Of a DNA stretch of 64,000 nucleotides, positions 12,017-62,178 are shown piece after piece (position 1 is the stretch's first letter; every line of letters begins with the position of its first letter). Origin of the DNA: an uncultured Acidobacteriota bacterium (lineage in GTDB: Bacteria; Acidobacteriota; Terriglobia; UBA7540); NCBI GenBank assembly GCA_963810005.1, contig CAWELY010000011.1, positions 122,458 to 186,457 on the forward strand, in the 5' to 3' direction. The notes beneath the pieces were generated by a model, which ran no database searches, had not been told where the DNA came from, and worked only from the letters and a program-made list of their open reading frames with translations. The position numbers and the translations under genes were made by a program.

Positions 12017-12116
12017 TAGAAGCTAGAAGTTAGAATTTAGAAGGTAGAAGTTAGAAGGGAGATGCTAACCTCCTTCCTCCAGCTTCTAGCTTCTAACTCC
12101 TAGCTCCTAAATTCTG
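12017..12116. repeat. heptamer word array hairpin (TAGAAGN words and their complement)
   Basis: TAGAAGC TAGAAGT TAGAATT TAGAAGG TAGAAGT TAGAAGG, then a ~15-nt spacer, then the imperfect reverse-complement run (CAGCTTCTAGCTTCTAACTCCTAGCTCCTAAATTCTG). Confidence 0.6.
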
Positions 12117-12125
12117 ACTCTGAGG

Positions 12126-13207
12126 TTGATATTTATGGGAGACCGGCAGGAGATACAAGCAATCCCGGGCGCATTGCGCCTGACGCTGGAGAAGGCCCAC
12201 GCTGAGTATGGGGCGGTGGCGCGCAAGATCCGGTGGGGTGACGGGCCCGTCTACGTCTGCGGGGCGGGGGAATGCGCCGCCCTGGGCGTGGCGGCTGGCT
12301 ATGCGTTTGAGTACTTTCTCGGCTTGCCGGTGGTGGCGCGCCCGGTGGAGGTTTTCCAGAACTACAGTCGCTCCCTCCTGCACCCGCGCTCGGTGCTGGT
12401 CATGATTTCGGCCAGGGGAGAATGGCCGGAAGCCCAGGAACTTGCCCGCGATGCGCTGGAGCGCGGTTGCACGACGGTGGCGTTGGCCAATACTCCCGAC
12501 AGCCCGCTGGTGAAATTGGCGGATCATGTTTTCCTCACCCCGGCCGAAGGTGATGCGGAATCGCCCACCGTGATCGGTTTGTATGCACGCCGCCCTCAAT
12601 TTCCTGGCGTTCGAAGCCATGCGGGTGCTGCAAGAAACCCAAGCCGTGGTGGGACCTGGTGGAAAAGGATTTTGATCAGTTGCCGGAAAAGCTCGAGTGG
12701 GTGTTCACGCAGCTTCCGTCGGTGGTCCGCTCGGCGGCGGCCGAGGTGGCGCGGTTTCCCCGCGCTGCGCATCGTGGGGGGAGGTTTTTACCACTATCCC
12801 GCTTGGCAGGCGGCGCGGCGAATGAGATTCCTGGCCGGACCTTCCGGTGGAGGCCATCGAGGCCTCGGAGTTGTTGCAGCGGAATTGCCCACTTCGCCCG
12901 GCGTGACGACGCGGTCCTGTTTCTTTCCGGCTCGCAATCGAAAATGAAGAAACTCCTCCATCGCTCGGCCGCCCAAGCGCGGGCGAATGGCGCGCGGGTG
13001 CTTTCCCTGACCGACAGCAACGATCGCGAACTTGCCGAGGGCTCGGACCTGGGAATCTTGATCCCCTCGCTCCTGGAAGCGCCGGCAAGTACCCTCACGA
13101 TGTTTATGCTCGAATGGCTGGCGATGGAAGCCCTTCGCGCCAAGGCGCCACAAGAGAAAGTCAAAAGTCAACAGTCAAAAGGCAAAAGTGAAAGGCCGGA
13201 AGTCTAA
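12126..13207 (+). pseudogene. double SIS-domain sugar isomerase/aminotransferase-like protein, several frameshifts
   Basis: ORF 12126-12947 begins with SIS-like VYVCGAGECAALGVAAGYAFEYF..VLVMISARGEWPE. The C-terminal SIS part (VLFLSGSQSKMKKLL..ARVLSLTD) is in ORF 12659-13207. Frames switch near 12590, 12770 and 12830-12900. Confidence 0.65.
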
Positions 13208-13390
13208 AACGGCCCCGCCCCGTTTCCGCGCTTCCAGCTTCGCCGCGGCTGTTTATTCAAGCAGGCACCGCCCAGTTGGGGAGCGTTGCAAGATGTAAGA
13301 ATCGGCATTTGAGAGCTATCTTTATCGGAAAGCACAAATCAGGCATCTTAATGGATTATAGTAAGGCGTTAAGATATTAACTTTATATCG

Positions 13391-13419
13391 TTGACACGGG
13401 GTTCTGATTCTGTTCTAAT
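13391..13419 (+). promoter_or_regulatory. candidate sigma70-type promoter TTGACA-17-TCTAAT
   Basis: TTGACA at 13391-13396, a 17-nt spacer, TCTAAT at 13414-13419. The ATG of the XRE gene begins 7 nt after the -10, and there is no SD sequence, so the mRNA may be leaderless. Confidence 0.3.
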
Positions 13420-18625: not shown

Positions 18626-19648
18626 TTGAACAGCCGACAGCGGGTTAAATCCGCCATCAACTTTAATCATCCTGATCGTGCGCCCATCTCCCACGCGGTT
18701 CTTCCGGCGGCGCAGATCAAGTACGGTAAGGCGCTGGATGAAATCCTCACCGAATTCCGCGAAGATTTCGGCTGGGATTATATGCAGGACCTGCCAGTGG
18801 CAGATTTTCCGGCTGTTTACAAGCAGGGCAGGAACACCGACGATTTTGGCACGGTGTGGTTTTCCGAATGGCTGGGGGTTTGCGGCATTCCCATCGGATG
18901 GCCGATCCGCGATCTGGAGCACTACGAGGATTACCACTGGCCGGAGGTTTTCACCGCTGGGCCGCCTTCCGGAAGGCTCTACAGCGGCCACATGATGGGC
19001 TTTGATGATCGCTGGTACGCCCGCGGCGCGTGGATCACCTTCTTCGAGCAACTCCAGCAGTTGCGCGGTATGGAAAACTTCATGCTGGACATCGCCACCG
19101 AGTCCAGGGAGTTTTACCGGCTGCTCGACAACTTGCTGGATTTTCACCTGCGCTGGATCGACAAGTGGACCAGTCTAGAATATGACGGCCTCCATTTTGC
19201 CGACGACTGGGGCGGCCAAACCTCGCTGATCATCAAGCCGGAAACGTGGCGGCGGATTTTCAAGCCGCGCTATGCGGAAATGTTCAAGCGGACTCGCGAC
19301 AAGGGAATGGACGTCTGGTATCACACCGACGGGCAGGTGCGCGACATCTTTGGTGATCTAATCGAAATCGGCGTGCAGGTGATCAATTGCCAGGTGCCGG
19401 TGGTGGGGCATGAGTGGATCGCCAGGAACATTCGCGGGCGCGTGGCCATTCGCACCGATATTGACCGTCAGCGCGTCATGCCTTTTGGCTCGACGTCGGA
19501 AGTGAAGGAAGAAGTGCACCGGACCTTTGAGGTGTGCGGGTCGTCGAAGGGCGGCATCGTCGCCTGCGGCGAAGTCGGACCCGACGTGCCGCTTGCGAAT
19601 ATCCGCGCCATGTATGAAGCGTTCCGTGAGTATGGAACATACACCTGA
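18626..19648 (+). CDS. uroporphyrinogen-decarboxylase (URO-D) superfamily protein
   Basis: 340-aa intact ORF with a non-ATG start in the track. It has URO-D/MtaA-like segments (GLHFADDWGGQTSLIIKPETWRRIFKPRY, VWYHTDGQV, GGIVACGEVGPDVPLANI). Confidence 0.65.
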   Translation: MNSRQRVKSAINFNHPDRAPISHAVLPAAQIKYGKALDEILTEFREDFGWDYMQDLPVADFPAVYKQGRNTDDFGTVWFSEWLGVCGIPIGWPIRDLEHYEDYHWPEVFTAGPPSGRLYSGHMMGFDDRWYARGAWITFFEQLQQLRGMENFMLDIATESREFYRLLDNLLDFHLRWIDKWTSLEYDGLHFADDWGGQTSLIIKPETWRRIFKPRYAEMFKRTRDKGMDVWYHTDGQVRDIFGDLIEIGVQVINCQVPVVGHEWIARNIRGRVAIRTDIDRQRVMPFGSTSEVKEEVHRTFEVCGSSKGGIVACGEVGPDVPLANIRAMYEAFREYGTYT

Positions 19649-19682
19649 TGACTCTCACCGCTGAGGCGCGGAGACGCGGAGA

Positions 19683-19850
19683 AGTAAAAGAAAGTCAAAA
19701 GGCAAAGTGCAAAAGTCAAAAGTCAAAAGTGAAAGACCGTGCGTTCCCAAATCCTTTCCTTGAGGCGTGGAGACCGGACTAAAGGTAAGGATTTTGGAAC
19801 GTCTGGTTTTTACTTTTGCCTTTTGCACTTTGCGTTTTGCCTTTTGACTT
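19683..19850. repeat. heptamer word array hairpin (AAAGTCA words) between convergent genes
   Basis: The left arm is AAAGTCA AAAGGCA AAGTGCA AAAGTCA AAAGTCA AAAGTGA. The right arm is the complement (TTTTACTTTTGCCTTTTGCACTTTGCGTTTTGCCTTTTGACTT). The spacer holds its own small inverted repeat (CCCAAATCCTT / AAGGATTTTGG). Confidence 0.7.
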
Positions 19851-19894
19851 GTTCTTGTTCCTCCGTGCCGATGCGTCTCCTCGGTGAGCCGCCC

Positions 19895-20659
19895 CTACTT
19901 CACAAATCGAATCACGCCAAACGACCACGGAGAGTGGAACGTGTGGGTATCACTCTGAACGAAGCTCCAGGAAAGAAAGCGCCGTTGGGTATCGTCTCCC
20001 GGACCGTCACAGCGAAAGAAGTTGATTCGCCAGTCGGTATTGGCCTCCAACGGCTTCGTTCCTTTCAAACCGGCTATCGGTATGCGCAGCTCACAAGTCC
20101 ACACGTGGTTCTTGCCGTCGACGTGCGTCGCGTGCTCGAACCCGGAATCCCAATTAGGATTGCCGAAGGGTTTCTTGTCGAGGTCGATCTCCAGATCGAT
20201 CCAAAGGTTGTTGGGCGCCACTTCAAACTCGTAGTAGTGTCTCAAGCGTTCGGGTTGGGGATTCAAGAATACCTCCACCACGTCGCGGTCCCAGAGCGTC
20301 CAGAAATCCTTGCTGGGATCCTTGCCCTCGTACAAGTTCAAAGTCGTGTATTGGCAGCGGTAGGCGATGTAAACGTAAGCTGGCGTCCAAAGTGAAGCGA
20401 TCTCGGTGGCGGATTGCGGGAAGGTGACCGGCTTGAAAGCGTCATGCTCAACCTTGACCCAGGACGCGCCGCGCCACACGGGCTTATCGAGATTGCCGTC
20501 GGGGACATAATCCTGGACCGTAAATTTGGAGATGAACTGGGAGTTGCTGATATAGGATTGGGGGTCCGAACCAGGAGCTTTCGCAGCTTCCACCATCAGA
20601 GTGCCTCCCAAGACAATAATGAGGACAACAAAACCGGCGAACTGTTTTCGACAGGACAT
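19895..20659 (-). CDS. membrane-anchored/secreted carbohydrate-binding family 9 (CBM9/DOMON-like) protein
   Basis: ATG at 20659 after GGAGG. MSCRKQFAGFVVLIIVLGG.. is the anchor. The CBM9-like pattern is LWTPAYVYIAYRC..LWDRDVVEVFLNP...HYYEFEVAPNN..WTCELRIPI..WRINFFRCDG. Confidence 0.6.
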   Translation of the reverse strand: MSCRKQFAGFVVLIIVLGGTLMVEAAKAPGSDPQSYISNSQFISKFTVQDYVPDGNLDKPVWRGASWVKVEHDAFKPVTFPQSATEIASLWTPAYVYIAYRCQYTTLNLYEGKDPSKDFWTLWDRDVVEVFLNPQPERLRHYYEFEVAPNNLWIDLEIDLDKKPFGNPNWDSGFEHATHVDGKNHVWTCELRIPIAGLKGTKPLEANTDWRINFFRCDGPGDDTQRRFLSWSFVQSDTHTFHSPWSFGVIRFVK

Positions 20660-20919
20660 CAACAACCTCCTCGGTGGGCTGGATGTGTGCGCAAGAAACC
20701 GCCCATTATGGCGGACGGTGCAAGAATTCACAACGGGATTCGACCCTGGACATGGTGCTGCCCTAATTTCGGGCGTAGCGCCGGGCTTCACCCCGGCACG
20801 TGCCGTCCTAAAGGGCGGCGCTACGTTCCAATGAGGACACTACCCGGGAAATAAGCGTGTTGACTCTCTGGGGAAGGAAAACTAAGCTGGCACGGTTGCC
20901 TTGCGAAGAGGAGGAGAGC

Positions 20920-28295: not shown

Positions 28296-28324
28296 GGCGG
28301 GAGAGAAAGGATAGTCATGAAAGC

Positions 28325-28428
28325 TAAAGGATAAAATGTAAATTGTAAATGATGAAATGGTAAAAGCGGAGAGCCAAGTTGATTTACCCAGTTTCAATTT
28401 CATACTTTATCATTTTCCTTTCACCCTT
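28325..28428. repeat. heptamer word array hairpin (TGTAAAT/ATTTACA-type words)
   Basis: AAAGGATAAAATGTAAATTGTAAATGATGAAATGGTAAAAG, with a partially complementary run TTCATACTTTATCATTTTCCTTTCAC. The same word family occurs at 34470-34560. Confidence 0.5.
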
Positions 28429-30413: not shown

Positions 30414-30419
30414 GGTTTT

Positions 30420-30555
30420 CTCCAGCTGACAGCCGACAGCTAACAGCTCCGGCAGCTAACAGCCGACAGTTTACAGCTCGTACAGCCAACAGCTTTATTG
30501 AGCCAAGCTCTAGCCAGCCGTTACTGTAAGCTGTCGGCTGTGAGCTGTTAGCGCC
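30420..30555. repeat. heptamer word array hairpin (CAGCYRA words)
   Basis: CAGCTGA CAGCCGA CAGCTAA CAGCTCC..CAGCTAA CAGCCGA CAGTTTA CAGCTCG TACAGCCAA CAGC, then the complementary CTGTAAGCTGTCGGCTGTGAGCTGTTAGC. It lies between the SurA-like gene start and the mfd end. Confidence 0.65.
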
Positions 30556-30571
30556 AACTTCTAGGCGTATC

Positions 30572-33500
30572 TTAAGTCTGCCGCGCGTGCAATTCCTGCA
30601 AGACGTTTTGGACCTGGGTCAGCAGGTTGCCCTCGCGGTCGCGCCCGCGGAAGCGCAGGACGCGGTCCGGGCGGAAGCTGGCATCGCGCCGCCGCCGCAC
30701 AAACTGCGCCAGCCGCTGGGGATCAACCGGCGCCTGCTCATGGAACTTGATCCAGATTTCATCCCCTTTGCGCTCAACCGTTTGTACCAGCAAGCGCTCC
30801 GCCGCGCTCTTCAGCAAGGCGTAATCAAGCAGGTTGGAAACCGAAGGGGGAATGGGGCCGAAGCGGTCGGCCAGCTCGGCTTCCAGGTCGGCCCGCTCGG
30901 TAGGGCGTGGCGGCGCTGGAAATGCGCTTGTACATGCGCAGGCGCTGGTTCTCGTCGGGAATGTAGGAGTCGGGAATTTTGATGTCGAGGCCCAGGTTGA
31001 GCGAGGTGCGCACTTCAATCTTGGCTGGGAGCGCCCCGCAATTCCTCCACCGTCTGCTCCAGCATCTTGAGGTAGAGGTCAATGCCCATGGCGTTCAGGT
31101 GGCCATGTTGCTCGGCCCCCAACAGATTGCCGGCGCCGCGCAATTCCAGGTCCAGCGCCGCCAGGCGAAAGCCCGCGCCGAGATCGGAGAATTCCTTCAT
31201 CGCCGCGAGCCGCCGCCGGGCGATGGGCGTCAGGGTGTCTTCCGACCCGATCAGGAAAAAGGCGTAGGCGCGGCGGTTCGAGCGGCCCACGCGCCCGCGA
31301 AGCTGGTAGAGGTCGGCAAGGCCGAAGCGGTCGGCGTGATTCACGATGATGGTGTTGGCGCGGGGGATGTCCAGGCCGTTTTCGATGAGCGCCGTGGCCA
31401 CCAGCACATCGTATTCAGCCGCGCATGAACTTCAGCATCGCCCGCTCGAGGTCTTTCTCGCCCATCTGGCCGTGCGCCACGCCCAGGCGCGCCGTGGGCA
31501 GCAGGCGCTGCAAAAGCGCGGCCATCTGGAAAATCGATTCCACCCGGTTGTGCACGAAGAAGACCTGGCCCTGCCGTTGCATCTCCTGCATGATGGCGGA
31601 CTGGATGAGCGCCTGGTTGAAAGGCGCGACGGTGGTTTGAATGGCCAGGCGGCCGCGGGGCGGGGTCTCGATGACGGAAAGGTCGCGCAATCCGCCGAGC
31701 GACATGTGCAGCGTGCGCGGAATGGGCGTTGCCGACATGGTCAGGACATCCACGCCGGATTTTAATTTCTTCAGCTTCTCTTTGGCGGCCACGCCGAAGC
31801 GCTGCTCCTCGTCCACAATCAGCAATCCCAGGTCGCGCCAGTGCACATCCTTGGAGAGCAGCCGGTGCGTTCCGATCAGGATGTCCACGCGGCCGGCTTC
31901 CGCGTCGGCCATGATTTTCTTCTGCTCCGCCGCCGTGCGAAACCGGCTGAGCATTTCCACGCGCACGGGGAAAGGCGCCATGCGCTGCGCGGAAGGTGGT
32001 GAAGTGCTGGAAGGCCAGCACCGTCGTGGGGGCCAGCACCGCCACTTGGCGGCCGTCCTGAATCACTTTGAATGCGGCGCGCATGGCGAGCTCGGTCTTG
32101 CCATACCCCACGTCGCCGCAGAGCAGCCGGTCCATGGGCTCGGGGCTTTCCAGGTCGCGCTTGATGTCGGCAAGGGCGGTGAGCTGGTCGGGCGTCTCCT
32201 CAAATTCAAACGCGTCTTCGAACTCGCGCTGCCAGGGCGTGTCGGGGGAGGCGGCAACCCCGCCGCGCATTTTGCGTTCGGCGTAAAGTTGCAAAAGCTC
32301 CTGCGCCATGTCGCGCAAGGCGCGTTTGACGCGCGTCTTGGTGCGCTCCCAAGTGGCGCCCCCCAGCCGGTCGAGGGGAGGTTTGGCGCCTTCGTGGGAG
32401 CGGTACTTTTCCACCAGGTCCAGGCGCTCGAGCGGCACGTACAGCTTGGCCTCGTCCTGAAACGTCAGCAGCATGAAATCGCGCGACGCGCCCGCCACGG
32501 AGATTTGCCGCAGACCTTGATAAATGCCGATGCCGTGATCGATGTGGACGACGTAGTCGCCGACTTTCAGATCGCTGAGGTCGGAGATAAAGCTGGAGAT
32601 CCCGGAACGCTCGCGCCGCCCGCGCGCTGCCCAGTCAAAGCCACCGAACAAGTCCGCGTCCGCCAGCCACAATTGCCTCAGCTCGGGAAAGGCCACGCCT
32701 TCGCGAATCTCGCCCCGGGCAATGAGCACACGAGCGGTATCGAGCGATTGGGTGATCGGGTCAATTCTATTGCCGCTTGTCGATTGCCGATTTTCGATTG
32801 GTTCAATCGTCAATCGACCATCGGCAATCGACAATGAGCTCCCCGATCTCTCGATCACCCGATCATACGGAATCTCGTAGTCCTTCAAAATCTCCCGCAG
32901 ACGATCCACCTTGCCACTGGTGGGGACGACGAAAATGACGGACTCGCCGCGCTTCACCCGACTGCGAAGATCTTCGACCAACTCCTTGACCCTCCCTTGA
33001 TACTTGGGAGGAGGTTGGGTGAGGAGAATCGGGCCATCAGAGGAATCGGGTGATCGGTTGATCGGGTGATCGGGTGAATGAACTGCTCGCTTGTCACTCG
33101 TCACTCGCCACTCGTCACTGCTCTCAAGAACTGCTCGCTCATCACTCGTCACTCGCCACTTGTCACTACTTTCACGCCACTCGTCACTGCTCTCAGCGCC
33201 TTCGGGCGGGAAGTATAAGTCGCCGCCGATAACCACCGCTTGCGAGCTGGTTTCCGCGGCCGGCGTGACGTTCTCAAGGCCCAATTCTTTGAGCGAAATT
33301 TGTGGAACGCTCTGGATGGCTTGAAGGAATTCTGGTTCGGTCAGATAAACTTCCCGGGGTTCTGGGCGGGGCGGAACGATGTCGCGAACTTCCTCGAAGC
33401 TTGCCGTCAGGCTCTCGATCGTAGGCGAAATTTGGGCGCGGCGGTCGAGGAGTTCGTCCCAAACCAGCACCGGACGATCCAGGAGGGAAAACAGCGTGTG

Positions 33501-34391: not shown

Positions 34392-34469
34392 GGGAGCACA
34401 ACAATTTATGCCGGGCTAGGAGTAATAGGGTCGAAGCCCAACTAGTTTCTCCGGCAGGGCGCAGGACAA

Positions 34470-34560
34470 GAATTGTAAATGATAAATGGTAAAGTATAAA
34501 AGGGATGAACTTGTGATTAACCATTTACAATTTATCATTTACCATTTACACCCTATTTCC
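34470..34560. repeat. heptamer word array hairpin (GTAAATG/ATTTACA words)
   Basis: TTGTAAATGATAAATGGTAAAGTATAAAAG..spacer..CCATTTACAATTTATCATTTACCATTTACAC, an imperfect inverted pair just upstream of mfd. Confidence 0.65.
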
Positions 34561-34623
34561 ATTTGCCCTAAAACCTTGCCGCCTATTGCCTGCTTGCGGG
34601 AACATGCAAACGGCGTTCGCTGC

Positions 34624-35115
34624 CTACTGCTTACTGCCTACTGCTTTCCGCGCAGCCTCGATGATGGCAGTGGTTGAATAGCCGGGAACGATCGGGATGG
34701 AAACCACCCGCCCGCCGGCGGCCTCCACTTCGTCGCGGCCGACGATTTGATCGAGAGTGTAATGCCCGCCCTTGACCAAAACATCGGGCAACATGCGTTT
34801 CACGACTCCCAGTACCGACGCGTCGTCGAAGATCGTCACATAGTCCACGGCAGCCAGGGCGGCGATGATTTCCGCGCGCTCGGCTTCCGGCTGAAGCGCC
34901 CGATTCTTCCCCTTGAGGGTGCAAACGCTGCGGTCGCTATTCATGGCGACGATCAAAACATCGCCCAGCTTGCGCGCCTCGGCAAACAGGCGGGTGTGGC
35001 CGGGATGCAGCAGGTCGAAGCATCCGTTGGTCAGGACCACCCGCCGGCCTTGACGTTTGAGCTCGTCAACCTTGCGATAGGCCTGCTCGAGGGGCAGGAC
35101 CTTTTGGATCCCCAT
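34624..35115 (-). CDS. cytidylyltransferase-fold D-beta-D-heptose 1-phosphate adenylyltransferase (RfaE/HldE domain II type)
   Basis: Internal ATG at 35115: MGIQKVLPLEQAYRKVDELKRQGRRVVLTNGCFDLLHPGHTRLFAEARKLGDVLIVAMNSDRS. CFDLLHPGH is the nucleotidyltransferase HxGH motif. Confidence 0.8.
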   Translation of the reverse strand: MGIQKVLPLEQAYRKVDELKRQGRRVVLTNGCFDLLHPGHTRLFAEARKLGDVLIVAMNSDRSVCTLKGKNRALQPEAERAEIIAALAAVDYVTIFDDASVLGVVKRMLPDVLVKGGHYTLDQIVGRDEVEAAGGRVVSIPIVPGYSTTAIIEAARKAVGSKQ

Positions 35116-35491
35116 GCGGCTATCCCCCTTCCGGGAATGGTCATTGCGATCACTCTTCCGGCCGGGCAATCTCCTTTCGCGAAAGGCGCGGGCGCCAGAT
35201 CAAGATACATCATTCTAACCGGTATTTCGCACCGAGCGGAGAGGTTCTCATCGCGTGGCTGCAAAAGGCTAGGGCAAGAAGAGGCGGAAAATCTCCTCCG
35301 AGTCCGAGCCGAGCCCGAGCCGCATGACTTTCTGGAGGGCAGTGATATACTGCCGCTATTCTGCGGGGAGGGAATCGCGAGGCGGGGTAAGTCGGCCGGA
35401 CGTCACCTCCCGGCAGAAGGTCCGACGATGGCAGTTTGCAAGGTGAGCGTGCTTCGGCACCAGCGCATTAATCGATGAGAGGGATGCACCC

Positions 35492-38701: not shown

Positions 38702-38876
38702 GATTTCGTCATCTTGACATGAGGTCCTGCGCCCGTAAACCCCCTTGTGGAGTGTCGGCGCCGGTGGCCAGACATCTCTGGTACAAGCCCGGCGGCGGCG
38801 GTATAATGATGCGTCGCAATTTGTTGGGGTGATATTGAGACGGTCCATAAGCTTTTGGGGACGGCGCGCCGCCGGC

Positions 38877-38961: not shown

Positions 38962-39041
38962 GTTTTCAAGCAGCGGGTAGATTTGCACCGCGAGAGGGAT
39001 TTCCGAGGAAAACTGAGAGCATCAACAACGAGGAGGATGAA

Positions 39042-39570: not shown

Positions 39571-39577
39571 GAAGCAG

Positions 39578-39778
39578 GTCCGGAGTCCGGTGTCCGAAGT
39601 TCGAAGTCCGGACGTTGCGATTCATTGCCGCTCAGGCGCTGAGACGGGGAATAGGTGTCAGGTATCAGGTGTCAGGTGTCAGGTGTCAGGTGTCAGGGTT
39701 TTACTGGTACCTGACACCTGACACCTTATTGGACTTCGGACTCCGGGACTCCGGACTTCGGACTCCGGACTTCCATTC
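39578..39778. repeat. nested two-family heptamer word hairpin (outer CCGGAGT words, inner GTGTCAG words)
   Basis: The outer arms are GTCCGGAGTCCGGTGTCCGAAGTTCGAAGTCCGGAC and GGACTTCGGACTCCGGGACTCCGGACTTCGGACTCCGGACTTCC. The inner arms are GGTGTCAGGTATCAGGTGTCAGGTGTCAGGTGTCAGGTGTCAGG and CCTGACACCTGACACC. Confidence 0.75.
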
Positions 39779-39790
39779 CAGGGGACATCC

Positions 39791-43919: not shown

Positions 43920-43924
43920 AGTAC

Positions 43925-44125
43925 CAGTCGCTCAGTCCGGAGTCCGGCGTCCGGAGTCGGGAAAATAACAACAGGCCTTACTTATCGCATGTCTTATAAA
44001 TCTCCCGAACGAGTTCACGCGCTTTCCCCCAAGCTTGAAGATCCTCAAAGCGTCGTATGGTTGCCATGTTCTTTCGACTCCGGACCCCGGACTCCGGACC
44101 CCGAACTCCAGACAGCAGACTCGGA
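43925..44125. repeat. CCGGAGT-word inverted arms inside the ABC operon spacer
   Basis: GTCCGGAGTCCGGCGTCCGGAGTCGGG at 43925-43951 and GACTCCGGACCCCGGACTCCGGACCCCGAACTCC at 44085-44118, flanking ~130 nt of lower-GC sequence. Confidence 0.6.
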
Positions 44126-46521: not shown

Positions 46522-47048
46522 GGAACAGCTTGGGTGTCAGGTGCAAGGGAAAAGCCATCCCCCTGGCACCTGAAACCCGCTTCTCCCGATCCAGCCGGAT
46601 CCCGCAAGAAGACGGGCTCACCTTTGGCGGAGCGGCATTCTCAATTTAGTTTGGTTCGAGGGGAAAGACGGCGGTTCCCGTCTCCCGTTTTCCGGCATCG
46701 ACGCTGAGAACAAACAGTTGCTTATTCAAATTGGCCGTCACGTGCCGGGATTTTGGCGCCGGCAAATACGCTCTTGCCTTGGCAAAAAGAGAATGCAGCG
46801 GGGCGGGCCGGGGGTTCCTTTTCGGACGGGAAGCTTTAATACTGCGCGCACCGAACTGGACGATTGCGGCGTGAGGTAGTACACTGCGCGCGGCGCTCGG
46901 GAATTTAGCATTTGGGATTTTGACTTGCCGGAGCGTGGTGGGGTGACCGCGGGGCGGCTCCCGAAAGCCCCGATGTCCGCCGTCAGGGCGAAGTCAGCCA
47001 GCGGCGATAATACTAGGATGTGTAAATAGTAAAAGGGTTATATTCCTG

Positions 47049-50812: not shown

Positions 50813-50907
50813 GCCGGGTTGGATCCAGCATCTTGCATTTTCGGTGCAAGAGCGCGGACGCCCGCTGGCTCTGCTCAGGCCAATTCTAAAATCCAAAATC
50901 AAAGGTC

Positions 50908-52028
50908 CTACGTCCAGCGGAACCAGCGCAATGCCAGCAGGTAGGAGAGAACTCCCCAGAGGCCCAGCACGAGCAGGCGTGCCGCATTGGTGGGCCAGCG
51001 GCGCGCCTTCCAGAATCGCGGCGCGCAGGGCGTCGTTCAGCGCGGTGAGCGGCAGCGCTTTGATCAGCGGGTGAAGGAGGGCGGGGAATCGCTCGTAAGA
51101 AAAGAAGACGCCGGACAGAATCCACATGGGCATCATGACGAGGTTGATCAGTCCGCTGACCGTCTCGATTTTTTGCGCGCGGCTGGCGGTGAGCAGCCCC
51201 ACGCCGCCGAAGCAAAGCGCTCCGAGCGCGCTGATGATCAGGATGGAAGTCCACGAGCCCGCGACGCGCATGTGGAACGCCAGCACGCCGAATCCGAGCA
51301 GCAGCGCCAGCTCAATCAGCATCAACACCAAGCGGCTGCTGGCCAGGGCCAGCAGAAAGTCACTGCGGCGCATGGGGCTGGCGACAAATCGCTTGAGCAG
51401 CTTGCGCTGGCGCAAGTCCACCAGGGCAAATCCAATTCCCCACATGCCGGAGTTCATCAGGTTCATGCCCAGCAGGCCGGGAATCAGGAAGTCGATGTAG
51501 CGCGCCCCGGGCTCGCTGGAGATGCGGCCGGTGGTGGGGACGCTGTTCTTTCTTCCCGCGGCCGCCTGGAGAGCGTCATCGGTGACGCTGCGGGCCAGCA
51601 CGCTTTCCGGGCGCGCCGGGTCATAGAGGTATTCAAACCCGCCGGCGTGCGGCGTCACCACCAGGTCGTATTTGCCCAGGCGAAACTGGTTGAGCGCTTC
51701 GGTGGCAGGGAGCAAATCCACATGCACCGTGCCTGCCGCCGACGCGCGTCGGAACAGTTCCATCGCCTGCGCTGCCTCCGGGCCCTGCCACCAGCGCCAC
51801 GCGGCTGACGTCGGCAGGCTTGTTGCGGAAGGCAATCCCCAGCCCCAGCGCCAGGAGAATGGGAAAGCCGAATACCCAGAAGATGACTTCCGGCTCGCGG
51901 TACATTTCCTTCAGGCGGGCCAGGAGCAGGAGCCCGTAGCTTTTCCAACGGCCGGTAATCGGGCGATCGGGTGACCGGTGATCGGGCGATCGGGACGGCA
52001 CGGTCATCGGGTGATCCGGTTCGAGCAT
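50908..52028 (-). pseudogene. ABC-2 type transporter permease (paralog of 42519-43919 core), two frameshifts
   Basis: N-terminal piece RWKSYGLLLLARLKEMYREPEVIFWVFGFPILLALGLGIAF (ORF 51633-52028). The body is in ORF 50780-51835. The restored C-terminus is NAARLLVLGLWGVLSYLLALRWFRWT*, with its stop at 50908-50910. The first ~20 codons are GATCGGG-word repeat. Confidence 0.7.
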
Positions 52029-52190
52029 TGCGAAGCTGCACGGTGATCTCGAGGGTCGTAGATCGTCAAATTTTGGATCCGAACTTTGGCGTTCCGATCT
52101 CTCGCATCATAATCGAATCCTCAGATCTCCGATTTCCAGATTCGACGATCGAATCCATCGCCAATCGCCGATCACCCGATCCGCAAATCC
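51952..52190. repeat. GATCGGG/CCCGATC word blocks between ABC ATPase and permease
   Basis: CGGTAATCGGGCGATCGGGTGACCGGTGATCGGGCGATCGGGAC..GGTCATCGGGTGATCCGG at 51952-52020, and ATCGCCAATCGCCGATCACCCGATCCGC at 52160-52187, plus intervening GATC-rich words. Confidence 0.55.
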
Positions 52191-53133: not shown

Positions 53134-53198
53134 AGCGGATTGCGGCGCGGGTGTGAACTCACTTGCGCGCGCGGCGAGCCGATCCACCAGGCCGATGC

Positions 53199-53616
53199 CT
53201 AGCTCGCCTACCACAGTAACCACCACCGTGCGCTGGCGTCCGCGCACATCGCATTCGAGGTGGAAGATTTGCTGCCATGTTCCGAGCAGCAGTTTGCCCT
53301 CGGCAATGGGCACCGTCAGCGAGGGGCCCAGCAGGGTGGCCTGCAAATGCGAATGGCCGTTGCCGTCGTGCCACGCCTGCTCGTGGCCGTAGTTGCGGCT
53401 GGGGGGGATGAGCTTGTTGAGGATGGCCGGCAGGTCCTGCTGTAGCCCGGGCTCAAACTCGATGGTGCCGATTGCCGCCGTGCTGCCGACATTGAAAACG
53501 TTGACGGTCCCGGTTTTGATGCTCGACGCGGCGACGGCGGCGGCAACCTGAGAAGTGATGTCGTGCATGTCGCCTTGCCCCGCGGTGCGAAGCGAAAACT
53601 GTTGTTGGTGAACCAT
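53199..53616 (-). CDS. YjbQ/UPF0047-family domain (secondary thiamine-phosphate synthase family), N-terminal part of the 474-aa ORF 52192-53616
   Basis: MVHQQQFSLRTAGQGDMHDITSQV..TGTVNVFNVGSTAAIGTIEFEPGLQQDL..HDGNGHSHLQATLLGPSLTVPI..GTWQQIFHLECD..RTVVVTV is full-length YjbQ-like (~139 aa). Confidence 0.75.
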
Positions 53617-57019: not shown

Positions 57020-57747
57020 ATGGCGTACCCAAGCATTCCAAAACGCGTAGCGGCGGTCAGGGAGGTAATAATCGTGCAACCGGCCGAAGCTGAAGGTCCG
57101 CCGCACTTAGGACTTGGTGATGGATTCTCGCTTCTGGAGATGATGGCGGTGATCGAAGACCAGTGGCGAGTGATTAGTGGCCAGTGGCGAGCAGGAAAGG
57201 CGGAAGAACAGTGGCGATTGACGAGCGGAAAGAGCAGGTCACAGGGAAAAGGTTACGGGGAAGAGAAGCAAGAGAGAATAGTGACAAGTGACGAGCGGAA
57301 ACCCAAAGCTGAACTACAGTGACGGGTGGCAAGTGACGAGTGACGAGCGGAATGACAACTCGCGTGGCTTCTCGCTTCTGGAGATGATGACGGTGATCGA
57401 CGCTGATCCTCATCCTGGCGACCTTCGCCATGCCCATTTACCATACGGTGGTCAGTGCGGGCGCGCGAAGCCACGCTGCGCGAGGACCTCTTCACGCATG
57501 CGCTCCCAGATCGACCGCTTCACCCACGACAACGAGCGCGGCCCCGCCTCACTCGACGAATTGGTGGATAAGGGTTACATGGGGGCCATCCCCACCGACC
57601 CCTTTACCGGCTCGAACGAAACCTGGCAAGTCGAAACCGAGGACACGTCCCTCTCCCTCGATGATTCCGCCCCGCTGGGAATCGTGGACGTCCACAGCGG
57701 CTCGCGAGGACAATTCGCTCGACGGCACGCCCTACAGTAGTTGGTAG
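57020..57747 (+). pseudogene. type II secretion / type IV pilin-like pseudopilin (prepilin N-terminal methylation motif), split by a repeat block and frameshifted
   Basis: The GFSLLEMM(A/T)VI motif occurs twice (57122 and 57366). After the second copy, the restored frames give TLILILATFAMPIYHTVVSA.AREATLREDLFT.MRSQIDRFTHDNERGPASLDELVDKGYMGAIPTDPFTG, which is GspG-like. There are 3 frame changes within ~100 nt. Confidence 0.6.
57157..57365. repeat. GTGGCGAG/GTGACGAG heptamer word block lying between the two 35-nt pilin duplicates
   Basis: CAGTGGCGAGTGATTAGTGGCCAGTGGCGAGCAGG..AGTGACAAGTGACGAGCGG..GTGACGGGTGGCAAGTGACGAGTGACGAGCGG. The same word family is found inside mfd at 33085-33195. Confidence 0.65.
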
Positions 57748-57956
57748 CGCAGGACCCGCTCTCCGGTCCTGCGGCTTTTCCCGCGGTCCGGGGTCCGAAG
57801 TCCGGAGTCGCAAGAACCGGGGCGAGTGGCAAGCAGGAAAGCCAGAAGAACAGGGCCGCGTTCCACGAAAGGGAACTACATCCTTAGCCCGTCAACTGAC
57901 GGATGAAACCGGAGGAAGCCCGGAAAATCAGGTTCCGGCCCGGAAGGGGCCAAACC

Positions 57957-58452
57957 GGTGGCACGGGCGTCTCGCCCGCGAAGGGTCACGGCCAGGATGG
58001 CCGTGCCACAACATTTCCCCGGTGGCACAGGCGTTCCGCCCGTGAAGGGTCACGGCCAGGGCGGCCGTGGCACAACATTTCCCCGGTGGCACGGGCGTCT
58101 CGCCCGCGAGCAGTCACGGCCAGGATGGCCGTGCCACAACATTTCCCCGGTGGCACGGGCGTCTCGCCCGCGAGCAGTCACGGCCAGGATGGCCGTGCCA
58201 CAACATTTCCCCGGTGGCACGGGCGTCTCGCCCGTGAAGGGTCACGGCCAGGACGGCCGCGCCACAACATTTCCCCGGTGGCACGGGCGTCTCGCCCGTG
58301 AAGGGTCACGGCCAGGACGGCCGTGCCACAACATTTCCCCGGTGGCACGGGCGTCCCGCCCGTGAAGGGTCATGGCCAGGACGGCCGTGCCACGTCGGGC
58401 AGGGCCCGTCACCCGAGGCTCTTACGGGCACGGGCAGGATGCCCGTGCCACT
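57957..58452. repeat. tandem array of ~7 units of a 64-bp repeat, plus a degenerate terminal unit
   Basis: Units start at 57957, 58021, 58085, 58149, 58213, 58277 and 58341, an exact 64-nt period. Each unit is GGTGGCACGGGCGTCTCGCCCG.GA.GGTCACGGCCAGGATGGCCGTGCCACAACATTTCCCC with two hairpins. Confidence 0.9.
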
Positions 58453-58632
58453 TCCTCCCGCGTGACACACTTCCCCACATCGGTTATCGACAGTGCGGGG
58501 TGAGGAGATGAATCAATTTGCCGGCTTCGAAAGGTTTTCAATGGCCCGATGTCCCGATGAACCGATGGCCCGATCCCCAGACCCGTGACGAGGGGCAAGG
58601 GCAGAGGGCAGATTCAAGTCTCTGACCTGTAG

Positions 58633-58652: not shown

Positions 58653-59200
58653 TGATCACCCCCGGAGCGCATTTTCGCTGAGGTTAAGGTGCGGAAGTTA
58701 GCGGGCCTTATTGTCCGAAGATGGAAGGGCGGGGCTTTACAGGGTCCGAAAAAACTCGCCTGCGCCGTGTTTCCGGGCTTTTTGTTCTCAATATTGAGGG
58801 AAGCGACATATTATCCCTCGTCCCAATAGGCGGGTACTAAGCACCGATTCGTCCCTTTTCGTGGGCAATCGTGGGTTATCAACCCAAAGGTCCGCTCAAG
58901 GGGTGATTGGAATCGCACTTTGGAGCACCGTATTTCACTTTTAGGCCTGCACTCGCTAGAACCGCTTAGCACCCTCTGGCCACCATCTTCGGGCACCTGC
59001 CCACTGTCCACTTCCTACTTGCCCTTCGAGTGCGCAATGCGCGTTCCCGCCATTCCCTGCAAGGCTTCAGGAGTCCCTTCCGGGGAGTTTCGGTTATCGT
59101 CGGGTTCAGGTGAGATGGCCCGATGACCCGATGGGCCGATTCTCTTCGGCTTCCTTCTGACTATGCAATCCACGGCGAATTGAGTACTCTGAAAGCAGGT

Positions 59201-59284
59201 GCAGCGCGGACCCGTTTTGCAGGTCCGGGGCTCGTCCGCGATGGGCAAGGAAAAGCCGCGGACTACAGAACCGGTCCGCGCTAC
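59201..59284. repeat. double-hairpin REP-like element, copy 3 (more diverged)
   Basis: GCAGCGCGGACCCGTTTTGCAGGTCCGGGG..CCGCGGACTACAGAACCGGTCCGCGCTAC, immediately upstream of the M16 peptidase start. Confidence 0.7.
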
Positions 59285-59315
59285 CCTTCTCGTGCTTACC
59301 ATCAGGGGGAATTTC

Positions 59316-62030
59316 ATGTTGCGCATTCACTACTTCCAGCGGCGGGGCCGTTTGTCGAATTTCACCAGGCTTGCTCTGATCACCGGCGTGATTACATTAC
59401 TGTTCTGCGCTTCACTCGATTCGGCGAGCCCCGGAGCTGAGCAGTCTGCCAACGTTACGCGAGCCACTCTCGCCAACGGACTCCGCGTGGTTATTGTCCG
59501 CGACACACTGGCTCCGGTCGTGACCACGGTCATGAACTATCAGGTGGGCTCGAATGAGGCGCCGGCAGGATTTCCGGGCATGGCGCACGCCCAGGAACAC
59601 ATGATGTTTCGCGGGAGCCCGAGCCTGTCGGCAGATCAACTGGCTGATATTTCGGCGGCCATGGGCGGCGATTTTAACGCCGACACGCAGCAAACCGTGA
59701 CGCAGTATTTCTTTACGGTCCCGGCGGAAGACCTGGATGTTGCCTTGCACCTTGAGGCGATTCGGATGCGCGGTTCTCTCGACACCGAGGACCTTTGGAA
59801 GGAGGAGCGTCCCGCCATCGAGCAGGAGGTGGCGGCGGACCTCTCCAATCCGCAATATGTCTTTTACACGCAGTTGCTGGGGGCCATGTTCCAAGGAGCC
59901 CCTTACGCCCATGATGCGCTGGGCACGCGCCCGTCTTTTGACCAAACCACCGGGCAAATGCTCCATCAGTTTTATGACGCGTGGTACGCACCCAACAACG
60001 CGATTTACGTAATTGCCGGAGATGTGGAACCCGAGCACGTTCTGGCACAAGTCAAGGCGCTTTTTGGCGATATTCCCAAGAAGACTCTTCCCGCCAAGCC
60101 CCCGGTCAACCTGGAAGCGGTGAAGGGCAAGGCGCTGGCGCTCCCCACCGACCTTCCTTACGGGCTGGCGGTGGTTTCCTTCCGCATGCCGGGGTCGAAC
60201 AGCCCGGACTATGCCGCCACCCAATTGCTGGGGGACGTGCTCAGCAGCCAGCGGGGCAGTTTGTATGCTTTGGTTCCGCAAGGGAAGGCGCTCTACGCCG
60301 GGTTCTCCCTATCGACGCTGCCCGAGGCAAGCCTGGGCTACGCCTTGGCCGTCTTCCCGCAGGGCGGCAGCGGCGACGATCTGGTCAATGAAATCAAAAA
60401 AATCCTGTCCGATGACGTGAAAAGCGGCCTGCCCTCCGATCTGATAGAAGCGGCGCGACGGCACGAGATCGTCGACGCCGAATTCCAAAGAAACTCGGTT
60501 TCGGGACTAGCCATGGAGTGGTCGGAAGCGGTCGCGATCGAGGGCCGCGAGTCGCCCGACGAGGATATCCAGGCCATCGCCAAAGCCTCCCCGGAGGATG
60601 TGGGGCGCATGGCGCGGCAATACCTGAACTTCGATCAGGCCATAACCGCCGTTCTCACTCCGCAGCCCTCGGGGAAGCCGATTTCTTCCAGTGCCTTCGG
60701 CGGCAAGGAGTCCCTGGCGTCCACCCAGACTCACCCGGTCGAACTCCCCGAGTGGGCGGCGAAGGCTCTTAGCCGCCTGTCGGTGCCGGAATCGAGCGTC
60801 CGTCCGGTGGTCACAACCTTGTCCAACGGTCTGAGACTTATTATCCAGCCAGAGTCGGTTAGCAACACAGTAAGTGTCTGGGGTCAAATCAAAAACAATT
60901 CCAACGTGGAAGCGCCGGAAAGCAAGCAGGGCGTGGGTAGCATTCTCGATCAGCTCTTTGAATATGGAACCACCACGCTCGACCGGCTGGCATTTCAGAA
61001 GGCGCTCGATGACATTGGCGCGGAAGAGTCCGCCGGGGCGGGTTTTTCCTTGCAGGTTCTACCCGCGCAGTTCGAGCGGGGCGTGCAGCTTTTGGCGGAA
61101 AACGAACTCAACCCGGCCCTGCCGGAAGACGCCTTCAAAACCGTGCAGCGGCGGCTTGCCTCGGCCGTGGCGGGCCAACTGCAAAGCCCCGATTTTCTGA
61201 CCCATCAAGCGGTGAATACGGCGCTTTTCCCCAAAGATGATCCGAGTTTGCGCCACGCGACGCCCGCCACCGTGCAATCCTTGAGCTTGCAGGACGTCAA
61301 GGATTACTACCAACGTACTTTCCGGCCGGATCTGGCCGCCATCGTAGTCATCGGAAACGTTACCCCGGATGAGGCGAAGGCCGTCATCACCAAGTACTTT
61401 GCAGACTGGAAAGCAGTGGGCGAAAAGCCGAATACCGATTTTCCGATGCCGCCGCCCAATAAGGCTTCTGCGACGGCGGTCCCCAATGCCAGCCGGGTTC
61501 AGGACGAGGTCACGCTGGCGGAGACCCTGGGCCTGAACCGCTTTAATCCCGACTATTACGCCCTCGAACTGGGAAACCACGTTCTGGGAGGTGGCTTCTA
61601 CGCCACCCGCTATTACCGCGACTTGCGCGAAAAAGGCGGACTGGTTTATTCCGTTTCGTCCTCCTTCAATGTGGGAAAGACTCGCGGGGTTTACGAGGTC
61701 CACTACGGTTGTGATTCCCCCAACGTCTCCAAAGCGCACAGCATTGTGGCCCGCGATTTGAAGGACATGCAGACGGCGCCGCCCACGGGCCACGAACTGG
61801 AGGAGGCGAAGGCACTCCTGCTGCGGGAGATTCCACTTTCCGAGTCGAGTGTCGACACTATTGCCGGCGGGATGCTTTCCCGGGCCTTACTGGGGCTGCC
61901 GCTGGATGAGCCCATCCAGGCCGCGCGCCATTACGTAGCCCTCACGCCAGAGGATGTCCGGGTGGCCTTCGCCAAATGGATTCGGCCGGATGATTTGGTC
62001 CAGGTAACGCAGGGCCCCGCGCCGCAGTGA
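59316..62030 (+). CDS. M16-family zinc metallopeptidase (pitrilysin/insulinase type, duplicated two-domain architecture)
   Basis: ATG at 59316. N-terminal anchor LALITGVITLLFCA. The inverted zinc motif HxxEH is in GMAHAQEHMMFRGS. The ~904-aa ORF is intact, with a second M16-like half (LSNGLRLIIQPE...). Confidence 0.9.
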   Translation: MLRIHYFQRRGRLSNFTRLALITGVITLLFCASLDSASPGAEQSANVTRATLANGLRVVIVRDTLAPVVTTVMNYQVGSNEAPAGFPGMAHAQEHMMFRGSPSLSADQLADISAAMGGDFNADTQQTVTQYFFTVPAEDLDVALHLEAIRMRGSLDTEDLWKEERPAIEQEVAADLSNPQYVFYTQLLGAMFQGAPYAHDALGTRPSFDQTTGQMLHQFYDAWYAPNNAIYVIAGDVEPEHVLAQVKALFGDIPKKTLPAKPPVNLEAVKGKALALPTDLPYGLAVVSFRMPGSNSPDYAATQLLGDVLSSQRGSLYALVPQGKALYAGFSLSTLPEASLGYALAVFPQGGSGDDLVNEIKKILSDDVKSGLPSDLIEAARRHEIVDAEFQRNSVSGLAMEWSEAVAIEGRESPDEDIQAIAKASPEDVGRMARQYLNFDQAITAVLTPQPSGKPISSSAFGGKESLASTQTHPVELPEWAAKALSRLSVPESSVRPVVTTLSNGLRLIIQPESVSNTVSVWGQIKNNSNVEAPESKQGVGSILDQLFEYGTTTLDRLAFQKALDDIGAEESAGAGFSLQVLPAQFERGVQLLAENELNPALPEDAFKTVQRRLASAVAGQLQSPDFLTHQAVNTALFPKDDPSLRHATPATVQSLSLQDVKDYYQRTFRPDLAAIVVIGNVTPDEAKAVITKYFADWKAVGEKPNTDFPMPPPNKASATAVPNASRVQDEVTLAETLGLNRFNPDYYALELGNHVLGGGFYATRYYRDLREKGGLVYSVSSSFNVGKTRGVYEVHYGCDSPNVSKAHSIVARDLKDMQTAPPTGHELEEAKALLLREIPLSESSVDTIAGGMLSRALLGLPLDEPIQAARHYVALTPEDVRVAFAKWIRPDDLVQVTQGPAPQ

Positions 62031-62178
62031 GAGGTGGGAGTGGAAAACCAAGGGTGGCGCAGCGCGGCGGAACCGCAAGAGAAAGTCAAAACGCCAAGCG
62101 CAAAAGGCAAAAGTGAAAAGACGCGCCTCCAATGTCCCTTGCCAGCATGGCAACGAGCGGGAGGCCACCCGGGACTTG

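Follow-up and report, generated by a model that had tools for sequence, protein, structure and literature searches.

Two kinds of described sequence come closest to the repeats reported here. In the intervening sequences (IVSs) of 23S rRNA genes, known from Leptospira, Coxiella, Brucella and Azospirillum, a long inverted-repeat stem encloses, or once enclosed, a gene of the PF05635 family (S23p). In Coxiella, the stem contains 3-4 GACAGAT repeats, depending on the strain, ahead of the S23p open reading frame (ORF) and is cleaved by RNase III at the first of them; RNase III processing has been demonstrated experimentally for rRNA IVSs, this one included (PMC4990558). The second kind are simple sequence repeats (SSRs) with heptameric units, which are over-represented, in part as inverted pairs, in Calothrix/Nostoc, Xanthomonas and Beggiatoaceae and form the commonest long SSR class in bacteria; this excess is stated without an explanation for it, and slippage alone has been proposed (PMC4692102, PMC4679880). 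A preprint on Nostoc postulates an as yet unidentified protein that binds heptamer repeats. Here we analysed 64,000 nucleotides (nt) of DNA from an uncultured Acidobacteriota bacterium of the Terriglobia (the window), in which arrays of short degenerate words recur, often followed by their reverse complement. We consider it fairly probable that these arrays form the arms of stem-loop elements of the IVS type, the kind that encloses an S23p/PF05635 gene, and that most of these elements are gene-less. The architecture, which the preliminary description of this DNA found unexplained by ordinary REP, MITE or terminator models, has precedents in the heptamer SSRs and the Coxiella stem.

Arrays were called by lag autocorrelation (at least 16 of 21 self-matches at the lag), with first-order Markov shuffles (n = 10) as the null. 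At period 7, 24 arrays covering 924 nt were found, against 0.0 in the shuffles; at the stricter cut-off of at least 18 of 21, the numbers were 9 and 0. All other periods from 4 to 15 gave 0-3 arrays each, except period 14 (twice 7) with 13. Tandem Repeats Finder (TRF) returned about 35 period-7 rows, which coincide with the loci of the lag scan and with those named in the preliminary description, confirmed at 12017, 13157, 19691, 62080, 34471/34516, 30423, 6972, 34620, 39578, 43934, 57786, 39653, 33093 and 57160-57347. A TGTAAAT array announced near 28325 is present at 28332, albeit weak (2.7 copies), and the supposed GATCGGG heptamers at 33045-33077, 51958-51994 and 32842-32865 turned out to have period 8, as do arrays at 58541 and 59114 (TRF). 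At least 9 different words occur in the 64 kb, whose GC content is about 60%. Each arm is a tandem run of, typically, 4-6 units of 7 nt (in some cases 8 nt), and TRF found super-periods of 14, 21 and 48 nt within arrays. One architecture, short-period tandem units that often form an inverted pair, is common to the loci, as had been proposed.

For the pairing of arms, a reverse-complement partner was sought by local alignment up to 350 nt away, with shuffled arrays as the null. Partners above the null were found at 12012, 19696, 30421, 34471, 39577, 43930, 46530, 51958 (marginal, score 14.5 versus a null maximum of 13.5) and 33045 (with 32842). With two further self-contained hairpins at 32770-32835 and 39650-39728, about 11 window loci are paired. 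Minimum free energies (MFEs) were compared with those of dinucleotide shuffles: paired loci fold much better (z -3.2 to -10.8, approximately -20 to -122 kcal/mol), whereas unpaired arrays have z near 0, no better than shuffles. The earlier expectation of long hairpins is borne out for the paired loci only, and inverted pairs, said to be usual, make up about half of the array loci, the rest being unpaired and some of them (33083-33174, 57160-57347) direct runs. Elements nested within the loop of another element occur both between genes (39577 and 19654 loci) and inside mfd.

The link to PF05635 comes from one of the paired loci:

43930..44110, minus strand: inverted GGAGTCC/GTCCGGA arrays between the ABC ATPase gene 44134-45066 and the ABC-2 permease gene 42519-43919 (fold of 43920-44125, minus strand: MFE -90.1 kcal/mol, z -4.8)

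Through this permease we collected 39 related loci from metagenome-assembled genomes (MAGs) of uncultured Acidobacteriota/Terriglobia from peat and soil, at no more than 84% amino-acid identity. At the same site in one of them (L013), inverted GTCCGAA arrays enclose a gene of about 120 codons with one frameshift. Its product belongs to PF05635, '23S rRNA-intervening sequence protein' (E 1.2e-31), a family also matched by NCBIfam TIGR02436, 'four helix bundle protein', and by PDB entry 2GSC (Xanthomonas XCC0516, E 1e-17), which contains 5 chains. The 106-nt spacer between the window arrays holds a 29-codon PF05635/TIGR02436 remnant (43981-44067, minus strand; MATIRRFEDLQAWGKARELVREIYKTCDK*) corresponding to the N-terminus of the protein (tblastn E 1.6e-7; hidden Markov model (HMM) E 6.6e-4). 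In the window, L003 and L005, the spacer matches the beginning (5' end) of the L013 gene in an alignment, up to a shared internal deletion of about 330 bp. By this alignment, the 43930-44110 hairpin is a gene cassette in decay, a deletion derivative of a gene-carrying one. That the arrays contain no ORF, as previously stated, does not hold for this spacer, nor for the arrays at 32738-33174, which are translated in the mfd frame. Intact PF05635 genes with GGTAGGT-type array hairpins on both sides were found in three further relatives (L017, L019, L022). In L017 (12478-13144) and L022 (2680-3367), each side of the gene carries a full hairpin of one word family (L1 R1 gene L2 R2), a layout that allows alternative pairings, including R1 with L2 around the gene.

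PF05635 is homologous to Avd, the accessory protein of diversity-generating retroelements. The family matched the NCBIfam model DivGenRetAVD weakly (E 4e-5, 23.9 bits, far under the family cut-off of 80 bits), and no reverse transcriptase or template/variable repeat pair was found beside the cassettes examined. PADLOC gave no defence-system match for the PF05635 protein. Small ORFs adjoining window arrays (13426, 29296, 29765, 41803, 34198, 28357) were considered as further family members and ruled out with Pfam, and a 550-bp unit at 39025-39570, repeated in relatives, proved to be a paralogous gene and not a cassette.

A metagenome scan seeded by peptide patterns of the PF05635 protein only gave 80 unrelated loci with GC contents of 0.32-0.71, in which arrays of period 7, 8 or 9 were counted. 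An array lay within 200 nt of the gene upstream in 51 of 77 loci, downstream in 47 of 74 and on both sides in 33 of 71, and array density was 1.98 per kb near the gene versus 0.20 per kb elsewhere on the same contigs. Duplex energies of 200-nt flanks were discarded, being implausibly large even in mismatched controls; by local alignment, which was used instead, flank complementarity exceeded the 99th percentile of mismatched controls in 49 of 70 loci. The last upstream unit runs into the ATG of the cassette gene, and the ORF can end inside the downstream array (for example ...SILTPDS*, ATT CTG ACT CCT GAC TCC TGA), although stop codons are only moderately enriched in the downstream arm (0.37 versus 0.20) and this is no general rule. 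Cassette arms have a median length of 5.4 units (interquartile range 4.8-6.2), some reaching 18-23. The 5' arm is purine-rich in 74 of 92 arrays, a property that, for an inverted repeat, holds on either strand. AG occurs in most cassette words, a result biased by the rotation procedure, for which AG was the seed.

The word of an array follows the protein that it flanks. Protein identity and word similarity are correlated (Spearman -0.33, permutation p about 0.002), and the words agree within one mismatch in 44% of pairs above 60% protein identity versus 1-4% of pairs below 50%, including pairs from contigs with GC contents of 0.41 and 0.57-0.66. Arrays more than 400 nt from the gene carry the cassette word of their own locus in 42% of cases, versus 6% for other loci. 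In different phyla, PF05635 genes have an array on one side and its reverse complement on the other; words co-vary with the protein, and nearby gene-less arrays tend to the same word. Neighbours of the gene are co-oriented in about 72% of cases, which fits co-transcription and is also typical of bacterial genes generally. One exception in layout is a cassette on plasmid 1 of Gemmatirosa kalamazoonensis (1006998-1008533), where CTGCSCT arrays on both sides have the same orientation and are not inverted. Another cassette contig (L042) carries a match to the Acido-Lenti-1 RNA (8308-8345, minus strand, 37.5 bits, cut by the contig end), which suggests that this contig is acidobacterial.

Among plasmids, tblastn found 29 records with a PF05635 protein, mostly from Nostocales, the taxa of the short tandemly repeated repetitive (STRR) sequences. 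Array-bracketed PF05635 genes were identified in Nostoc punctiforme (pNPUN02, word GGAGTCA), Trichormus variabilis, Riemerella (8-mers) and Azospirillum lipoferum. The Azospirillum cassette, with CAGAGGA/CGGAGGA arms, sits within a 23S rRNA gene (Rfam LSU, 909 bits), which makes it an IVS of the classical kind whose arms are heptamer arrays. The Xanthomonas campestris gene XCC0516 is overlapped at its start by repeat #15, of the GGGAATC type (supplement of PMC4692102). A literature search for a general link between such repeats and the S23p/four-helix-bundle family returned the Coxiella paper only; the papers on STRRs and heptamer SSRs do not make the link to PF05635, and the Xanthomonas case is visible only in a supplementary table.

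We then compared orthologous sites among the 39 related loci. Period-7 arrays were present in 27 of them, and periods 5, 6, 8, 9 and 10 were near zero; many of these arrays are built of window words (GGTGTCA, GTCCGGA, GAGTGAC). The GGTGYCA hairpin at the 3' end of ackA is orthologous, with 2 units per arm in the window, 5 and 9 in L001, and 5 and 4 around a 110-nt loop in L011. The nested arrangement of 39577-39775 is kept in L001 and partly in L023, other relatives having a REP-like palindrome (described below) instead. The most variable site is the ATPase/permease spacer. It is empty (0-30 nt) in L009, L011, L012, L014, L015 and L026, and some of these 'empty' sites, such as those of L026 and L011, contain short proto-arrays. 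It has GTCCGGA arms in the window, L003, L005 and L013, CAGGAGY arms in L001 and L007, ATTTTGG arms in L010 and period-8 ATCGGGTC arms in six loci. Thus, the number of units differs between species at orthologous sites while the word is kept, and the ATPase/permease site also swaps words.

Arrays also occur inside a conserved protein-coding gene. mfd (30572-34391, minus strand, with frameshifts in this assembly; TRCF domain in ORF 30572-31018) contains arrays in its two inter-domain linkers:

32738..32866, minus strand: mfd linker 2, outer period-8 arms (GATCGGGN)x3 and (NACCCGAT)x3, in frame (fold of 32760-32870: MFE -41.9 kcal/mol, z -6.1)
33045..33174, minus strand: mfd linker 1, period-8 (ATCGGGTG)x4 giving HSPDHPINRSPD and (GTCACTC)x~11 giving SSDEWRVTSDERAV repeats, in frame

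The loop of the linker-2 period-8 hairpin is filled by a heptamer hairpin, (ATTGNCG)x4.6 / (CAATCGA)x4.6 at 32770-32835, and the linker is translated as ...DRVIERSGSSLSIADGRLTIEPIENRQSTSGNRIDPITQSLD... In linker 1, (GAGTGAC)n on the coding strand encodes SSDEWRVTSDERAV, and TGG variant units stand where TGA would be an in-frame stop. The linker-1 8-mer array at 33045 is the reverse complement of 32842-32865, with a conserved stretch of about 60 codons in between; (CACCCGAT)n in the linkers translates as HPI(T/N)RSPD. In 120 Terriglobia Mfd orthologues (P0001-P0120, 1174-1321 amino acids), both linkers are hypervariable, differing by up to about 150 residues, and carry the same words in translation, in both orientations; the repeat-derived peptides that fill them are SSDEWRVTSDE, HPITRSPD, ERSGDRV, ENRKSPIANRQ and PVPSPQPP. 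Linker 2 has different fillings or none; in L128 and L131, the entire period-8 hairpin is translated, both arms and the loop. A short, array-free linker is found in the more distant orthologues and in some close ones (L129, L130), and therefore looks like the ancestral state.

The remaining array loci of the window are as follows:

1043..1079, plus strand: (CCCCTAA)x2.7, unpaired
6964..7000: 2.9 units of the CTGCCTA word also found at 34617, unpaired
12012..12120: hairpin of (TTAGAAG)x6, 14-nt centre GGAGATGCTAACCTCC and (CTTCTAR)x5, from TRF and the sequence (fold of 12005-12125: MFE -42.1 kcal/mol, z -3.2)
13154..13195, plus strand: (AAAGTCA)x5.3, unpaired, at the 3' end of the SIS-domain gene (fold z -0.4)
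19654..19888: layered hairpin of about 235 nt with outer arms of CGCGGAGA-type 8-mers, then (AAAGTCA)x6.3, (CTTTTGC)x5.4 and a small central hairpin (fold of 19645-19895: MFE -122.1 kcal/mol, z -10.8)
28323..28350, plus strand: weak (TGTAAAT)x2.7, unpaired
30421..30552: hairpin of (CAGCYRA)x~10 and (CTGTNRG)x4, from TRF and the sequence (fold of 30415-30560: MFE -60.7 kcal/mol, z -5.8)
34471..34551: hairpin of AATGGTAAAGGATA-type units and (ATTTACC)x4.9, between the mfd start (34391) and a cytidylyltransferase-like gene (34624-35169) (fold of 34465-34560: MFE -20.4 kcal/mol, z -3.2)
34617..34652, plus strand: (CTGCCTA)x3.6, unpaired
39577..39775: nested hairpin with outer arms (GTCCGGA)x5 and (GGACTCC)x5.7, directly upstream of the aldo/keto-reductase start (fold of 39570-39785: MFE -114.7 kcal/mol, z -7.0)
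46530..46578: small hairpin (GGTGTCA)x2 / (TGGCACC)x2, 11 nt past the ackA stop codon
47267..47296, plus strand: degenerate (GATTGGG)x4, unpaired
51958..52185: period-8 (ATCGGGCG)x4.8 with its reverse-complement partner at 52157-52181
57157..57363, plus strand: direct runs of AGTGGCG/AGTGACG, the word of mfd linker 1, read from the sequence
57780..57810, plus strand: (GTCCGGR)x3.4, unpaired, 40 nt past the pseudopilin-like gene
58541..58574, plus strand: period-8 (ATGGCCCG)x4.2, the same word and orientation recurring at 59114-59140
62075..62120, plus strand: degenerate AAAGKCA, unpaired, 45 nt past the stop codon of an M16 peptidase gene

According to a gene map based on GC content at third codon positions, genes make up about 77% of the window and nearly all arrays fall within the other 23% or so, usually 7-60 nt from a stop or start codon. 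The majority of sites lie between co-directional genes (transposase/SIS gene, mfd/next gene, cytidylyltransferase/mfd, DUF gene/aldo-keto reductase, two ABC ATPase/permease sites and the ackA 3' end), and only 19654-19888 and 62080 are at convergent gene ends; the claim that arrays mostly sit at 3' ends or between convergent genes had to be corrected. The 12012 hairpin (partner score 20.5, null maximum 13) has the SIS-domain gene, starting at about 12126, on one side (Pfam); on the other, an IS630-type transposase gene with DDE_3 and HTH domains (10916-11992, plus strand) ends 20 nt upstream of it. The 19654-19888 hairpin is flanked by a URO-D-like gene (18626-19648, plus strand) and a CBM9 gene (19895-20791, minus strand). 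The 30421-30552 hairpin lies 20 nt past the mfd stop codon (30572, minus strand) and adjoins the next gene at its ribosome-binding site and start (30413), and the 51958-52185 site separates a second ABC ATPase gene (52192-53616) from an ABC-2 permease gene (50780-51835). Inside 39577-39775, there are a small CGCTCAGGCGCTGAG hairpin and an (AGGTGTC)x6.4 / (ACCTGAC)x2.6 hairpin. Rfam detected no family on the hairpins or cassette flanks and no rRNA in the window, its sole match there being tRNA-Gln.

Words recur at distant loci, as had been noted for AAAGTCA at 13154, 19691 and 62080. The AAAGTCA arrays at 13154-13195, 19691-19738, 62075-62120 and L016 13440-13488 have common first units GAGAAAGTCAAAA and last units AAAAGTGAAAGRCCG and, from this likeness, seem to be copies of a single array and not expansions that arose independently. 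The 207-nt AGTGGCG/AGTGACG stretch is bracketed by a 35-nt direct repeat with 2 mismatches (57122-57156 and 57366-57400) encoding the prepilin N-terminus GFSLLEMM(A/T)VI, which could have arisen as a long target duplication or, seeded by the arrays, as a partial duplication of the gene. For CCCCTAA at 1059, a telomere-like reading was dropped, as this is a lone 2.7-unit array without supporting context.

Other repeats were also observed. REP-like palindromes with core GCGGACCTACAAAACAGGTCCGC and arms of 32-40 nt that are 90-94% complementary occur at 36528-36616 and 38876-38962 and in relatives (L005 at about 16290, L002 at about 12985). They represent a second, separate family of intergenic hairpins, in some relatives found at the site of the window's heptamer hairpin. 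At 57955-58393, a 64-bp unit is repeated 6.9 times in tandem (93% matches), each unit carrying a palindromic element of 52 nt, GTGGCACGGGCGTCTCGCCCGTGAAGGGTCACGGCCAGGACGGCCGTGCCAC; with identical 12-nt 'spacers', the repeat does not qualify as a CRISPR array. Long imperfect non-tandem palindromes (for example GGAGTGCGGCAGCTTGCTGCCGC...) lie at 9712-9854, 4556-4689, 6737-6870, 244-429 and 62969-63055, with 4556-4689 and 6737-6870 being near-duplicate segments. Four genes need one or more frameshifts for read-through, namely mfd, the SIS-domain gene (12126-13207, plus strand), a GspG-like pseudopilin gene (57288-57740, plus strand) and the aldo/keto reductase gene (39791-40835, plus strand); they contain either assembly indel errors or are pseudogenes.

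Compared with 23S rRNA IVSs, the window elements share the inverted-repeat stem and, with those of Coxiella and Azospirillum, a stem of tandem heptamers in variable number; they probably also share transcription within a host transcript. Unlike IVSs, they occupy mRNA spacers and protein-coding linkers instead of rRNA helix 25 or 45, nearly all are without an ORF, and excision by RNase III would be a matter of analogy. With the STRRs of Calothrix/Nostoc, the GGGAATC repeats of Xanthomonas, the TAACTGA repeats of Beggiatoaceae and the 'long SSRs' of Mrazek et al. 2007, they share tandem heptamers that are mostly intergenic and near start or stop codons, several word families per genome, some inverted, and lengths that vary between relatives. 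They differ in phylum, in their words and in a far larger share of inverted pairs and nested hairpins. To our knowledge, none of the words of this lineage equals the STRR1-3 consensus of heterocystous cyanobacteria.

Several results speak against a common identity of all window arrays as IVS-type stems. About half of the array loci (1043, 6964, 13154, 28323, 34617, 47267, 57780, 58541, 59114, 62080) have no partner above the null. An HMM built from 70 PF05635 proteins finds no second trace in the window (1 of about 23 array loci) nor in most related loci; with the trace at one locus only, the other loci are assigned by the architecture they share and not by homology. Window words do not match cassette words significantly better than random heptamers do (within one mismatch, 82% versus 63%). 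G-U-compatible mismatches on the sense strand show no excess (77 versus 76), and thus give no positive sign of selection on an RNA stem. Neither a target-site duplication nor a clean empty/filled pair was found at the ATPase/permease site or mfd linker 2, so that mobility is a candidate property only. Rfam detected no family on the hairpins or cassette flanks and no rRNA in the window, its sole match there being tRNA-Gln.

As we picture the IVS-type elements, they would occupy gene spacers and tolerant protein linkers in this acidobacterial lineage, nearly all having lost the PF05635 gene or never had it. They would probably be transcribed together with host genes, and any action of theirs would be that of RNA stems. 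By analogy, likely roles are those of RNase III substrates or of 3'-end barriers or protection uncoupling neighbouring cistrons, although most elements may well be selfish or near-neutral passengers. The arms presumably lengthen and shorten by replication slippage, which would account for the changes in unit number. The lack of G-U asymmetry argues that the two arms are kept alike at the DNA level, by copying, and not by selection on RNA pairing.

A broader version goes further, and we put it forward with considerable reserve: inverted 7-9-nt arrays and the PF05635/TIGR02436 pentamer (S23p, Avd-like) might form one widespread, unrecognised element system, with gene cassettes as autonomous and gene-less hairpins as dependent members. 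In such a system, arrays of its own word would be bound by the protein or copied with its help, perhaps with a cellular reverse transcriptase or by hairpin-templated synthesis. Hairpin loops would be the preferred targets, which would explain the rRNA helix tips and the nested hairpins.

The strongest competitor of the IVS-type reading, though itself rather unlikely, is that the arrays are ordinary long SSRs. Slippage would favour 7-nt units in unconstrained DNA, pre-existing 3'-end hairpins would expand on both arms, and proximity to PF05635 would be a by-product of spacers. In many genomes, heptamers are reported to dominate among long SSRs, and slippage has been published as the explanation, which fits this and at the same time weighs against IVS-type elements. 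The variable unit numbers at orthologous sites, the 14-, 21- and 48-nt super-periods, which indicate block duplications, the unpaired half of the arrays and the proto-arrays at 'empty' sites likewise speak for it, and for the unpaired arrays plain slippage-born SSRs are a live rival. Against it speak an array density 10-fold higher beside PF05635 genes than elsewhere on the same contigs, the reverse-complement arrays on the two sides of the gene, and words that co-vary with the protein over very different GC contents. The stop codon embedded in the array points the same way, with the moderate enrichment given above. Further points against it are the same words, even the same first and last units, at 13154, 19691 and 62080, and whole hairpins, nested ones too, inside a coding linker.

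Improbable, in our estimate, is a reading of the arrays as binding sites for a trans-acting protein that forms a regulatory network on neighbouring genes, acting on DNA or RNA. The candidate would be the PF05635 pentamer, at about one unit per subunit. The arm length of about 5 units matches the five chains of 2GSC and the description of the Xanthomonas protein as a homopentamer (PMC4990558), and the AG core of most words, the co-variation of word and protein and the heptamer-binding protein postulated for Nostoc are all in line with it. Against this stand the at least 9 words in 64 kb, which would require many specificities, the AG core being biased because the rotation was seeded on AG, arms of 18-23 units, and the tolerance of arrays in a translated linker.

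Repetitive extragenic palindromic (REP) sequences and bacterial interspersed mosaic elements (BIMEs) of enterobacteria and pseudomonads are also abundant hairpin repeats in spacers within and between operons, with plausible effects on mRNA stability and the uncoupling of cistrons. An origin as such palindromes moved by a RAYT transposase, or as miniature inverted-repeat transposable elements (MITEs) derived from an insertion sequence, is very improbable here. The elements are intergenic, palindromic and multicopy, an IS630-type transposase adjoins the 12012 hairpin, and separate REP-like palindromes exist in the window. Their arms, however, consist of tandem 7-8-nt units with interchangeable words that differ by locus, where REPs have a conserved imperfect palindrome of 20-40 nt, and PF05635 is the sole gene associated with them. 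Neither terminal inverted repeats like those of the IS630 copy nor target duplications were seen (12012, ATPase/permease site, mfd linker 2), although the 35-nt direct repeat around the 57157-57363 arrays could be one such duplication, and no RAYT-like gene was noticed in the 64-kb window, its ORFs not having been systematically scanned. On this anatomy, the REP reading was rejected and the MITE reading disfavoured. Intrinsic terminators were rejected as well: the sequence at 12120, 19888, 30552 and 39775 has no T-run after the stem, and several stems sit inside operons or an ORF. On these points, the preliminary description, which saw no T-tract and no fit to REP, MITE or terminator models, was right. 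A CRISPR array was dismissed, as the units are contiguous and 7-8 nt long, compared with repeats of 24-48 nt with unique spacers. Artefacts of assembly or sequencing in low-complexity DNA, a possibility raised earlier to which frameshifts in otherwise conserved genes (mfd, SIS, pseudopilin) lend plausibility, are effectively refuted: dozens of MAGs and metagenome contigs that were assembled independently have these arrays at the same sites, so that no single assembly can be their source, and also in finished genomes of cultured organisms.

Heptamer repeats are a 35-year loose end: they serve as cyanobacterial fingerprinting targets and are the commonest long SSR in many genomes, without an accepted origin or partner protein. 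The S23p/four-helix-bundle family, in turn, is widespread and structurally solved, yet functionally blank. If the two belong together, the protein would gain a defined nucleic-acid ligand and the repeats a defined protein, and a route would open from rRNA IVSs to colonisers of operon spacers and even of protein linkers. Kinship with IVS-type stems may be the reason for the abundance of heptamers in some bacteria. Should the broader element system be real, rRNA IVSs, cyanobacterial STRRs, the heptamer repeats of Xanthomonas and Beggiatoa and the general excess of heptamer SSRs in bacteria would have a common origin. For annotation, the hairpins would, by analogy, mark likely RNA-processing sites within operons, and hairpin arrays explain the hypervariable low-complexity inserts in conserved proteins such as Mfd.

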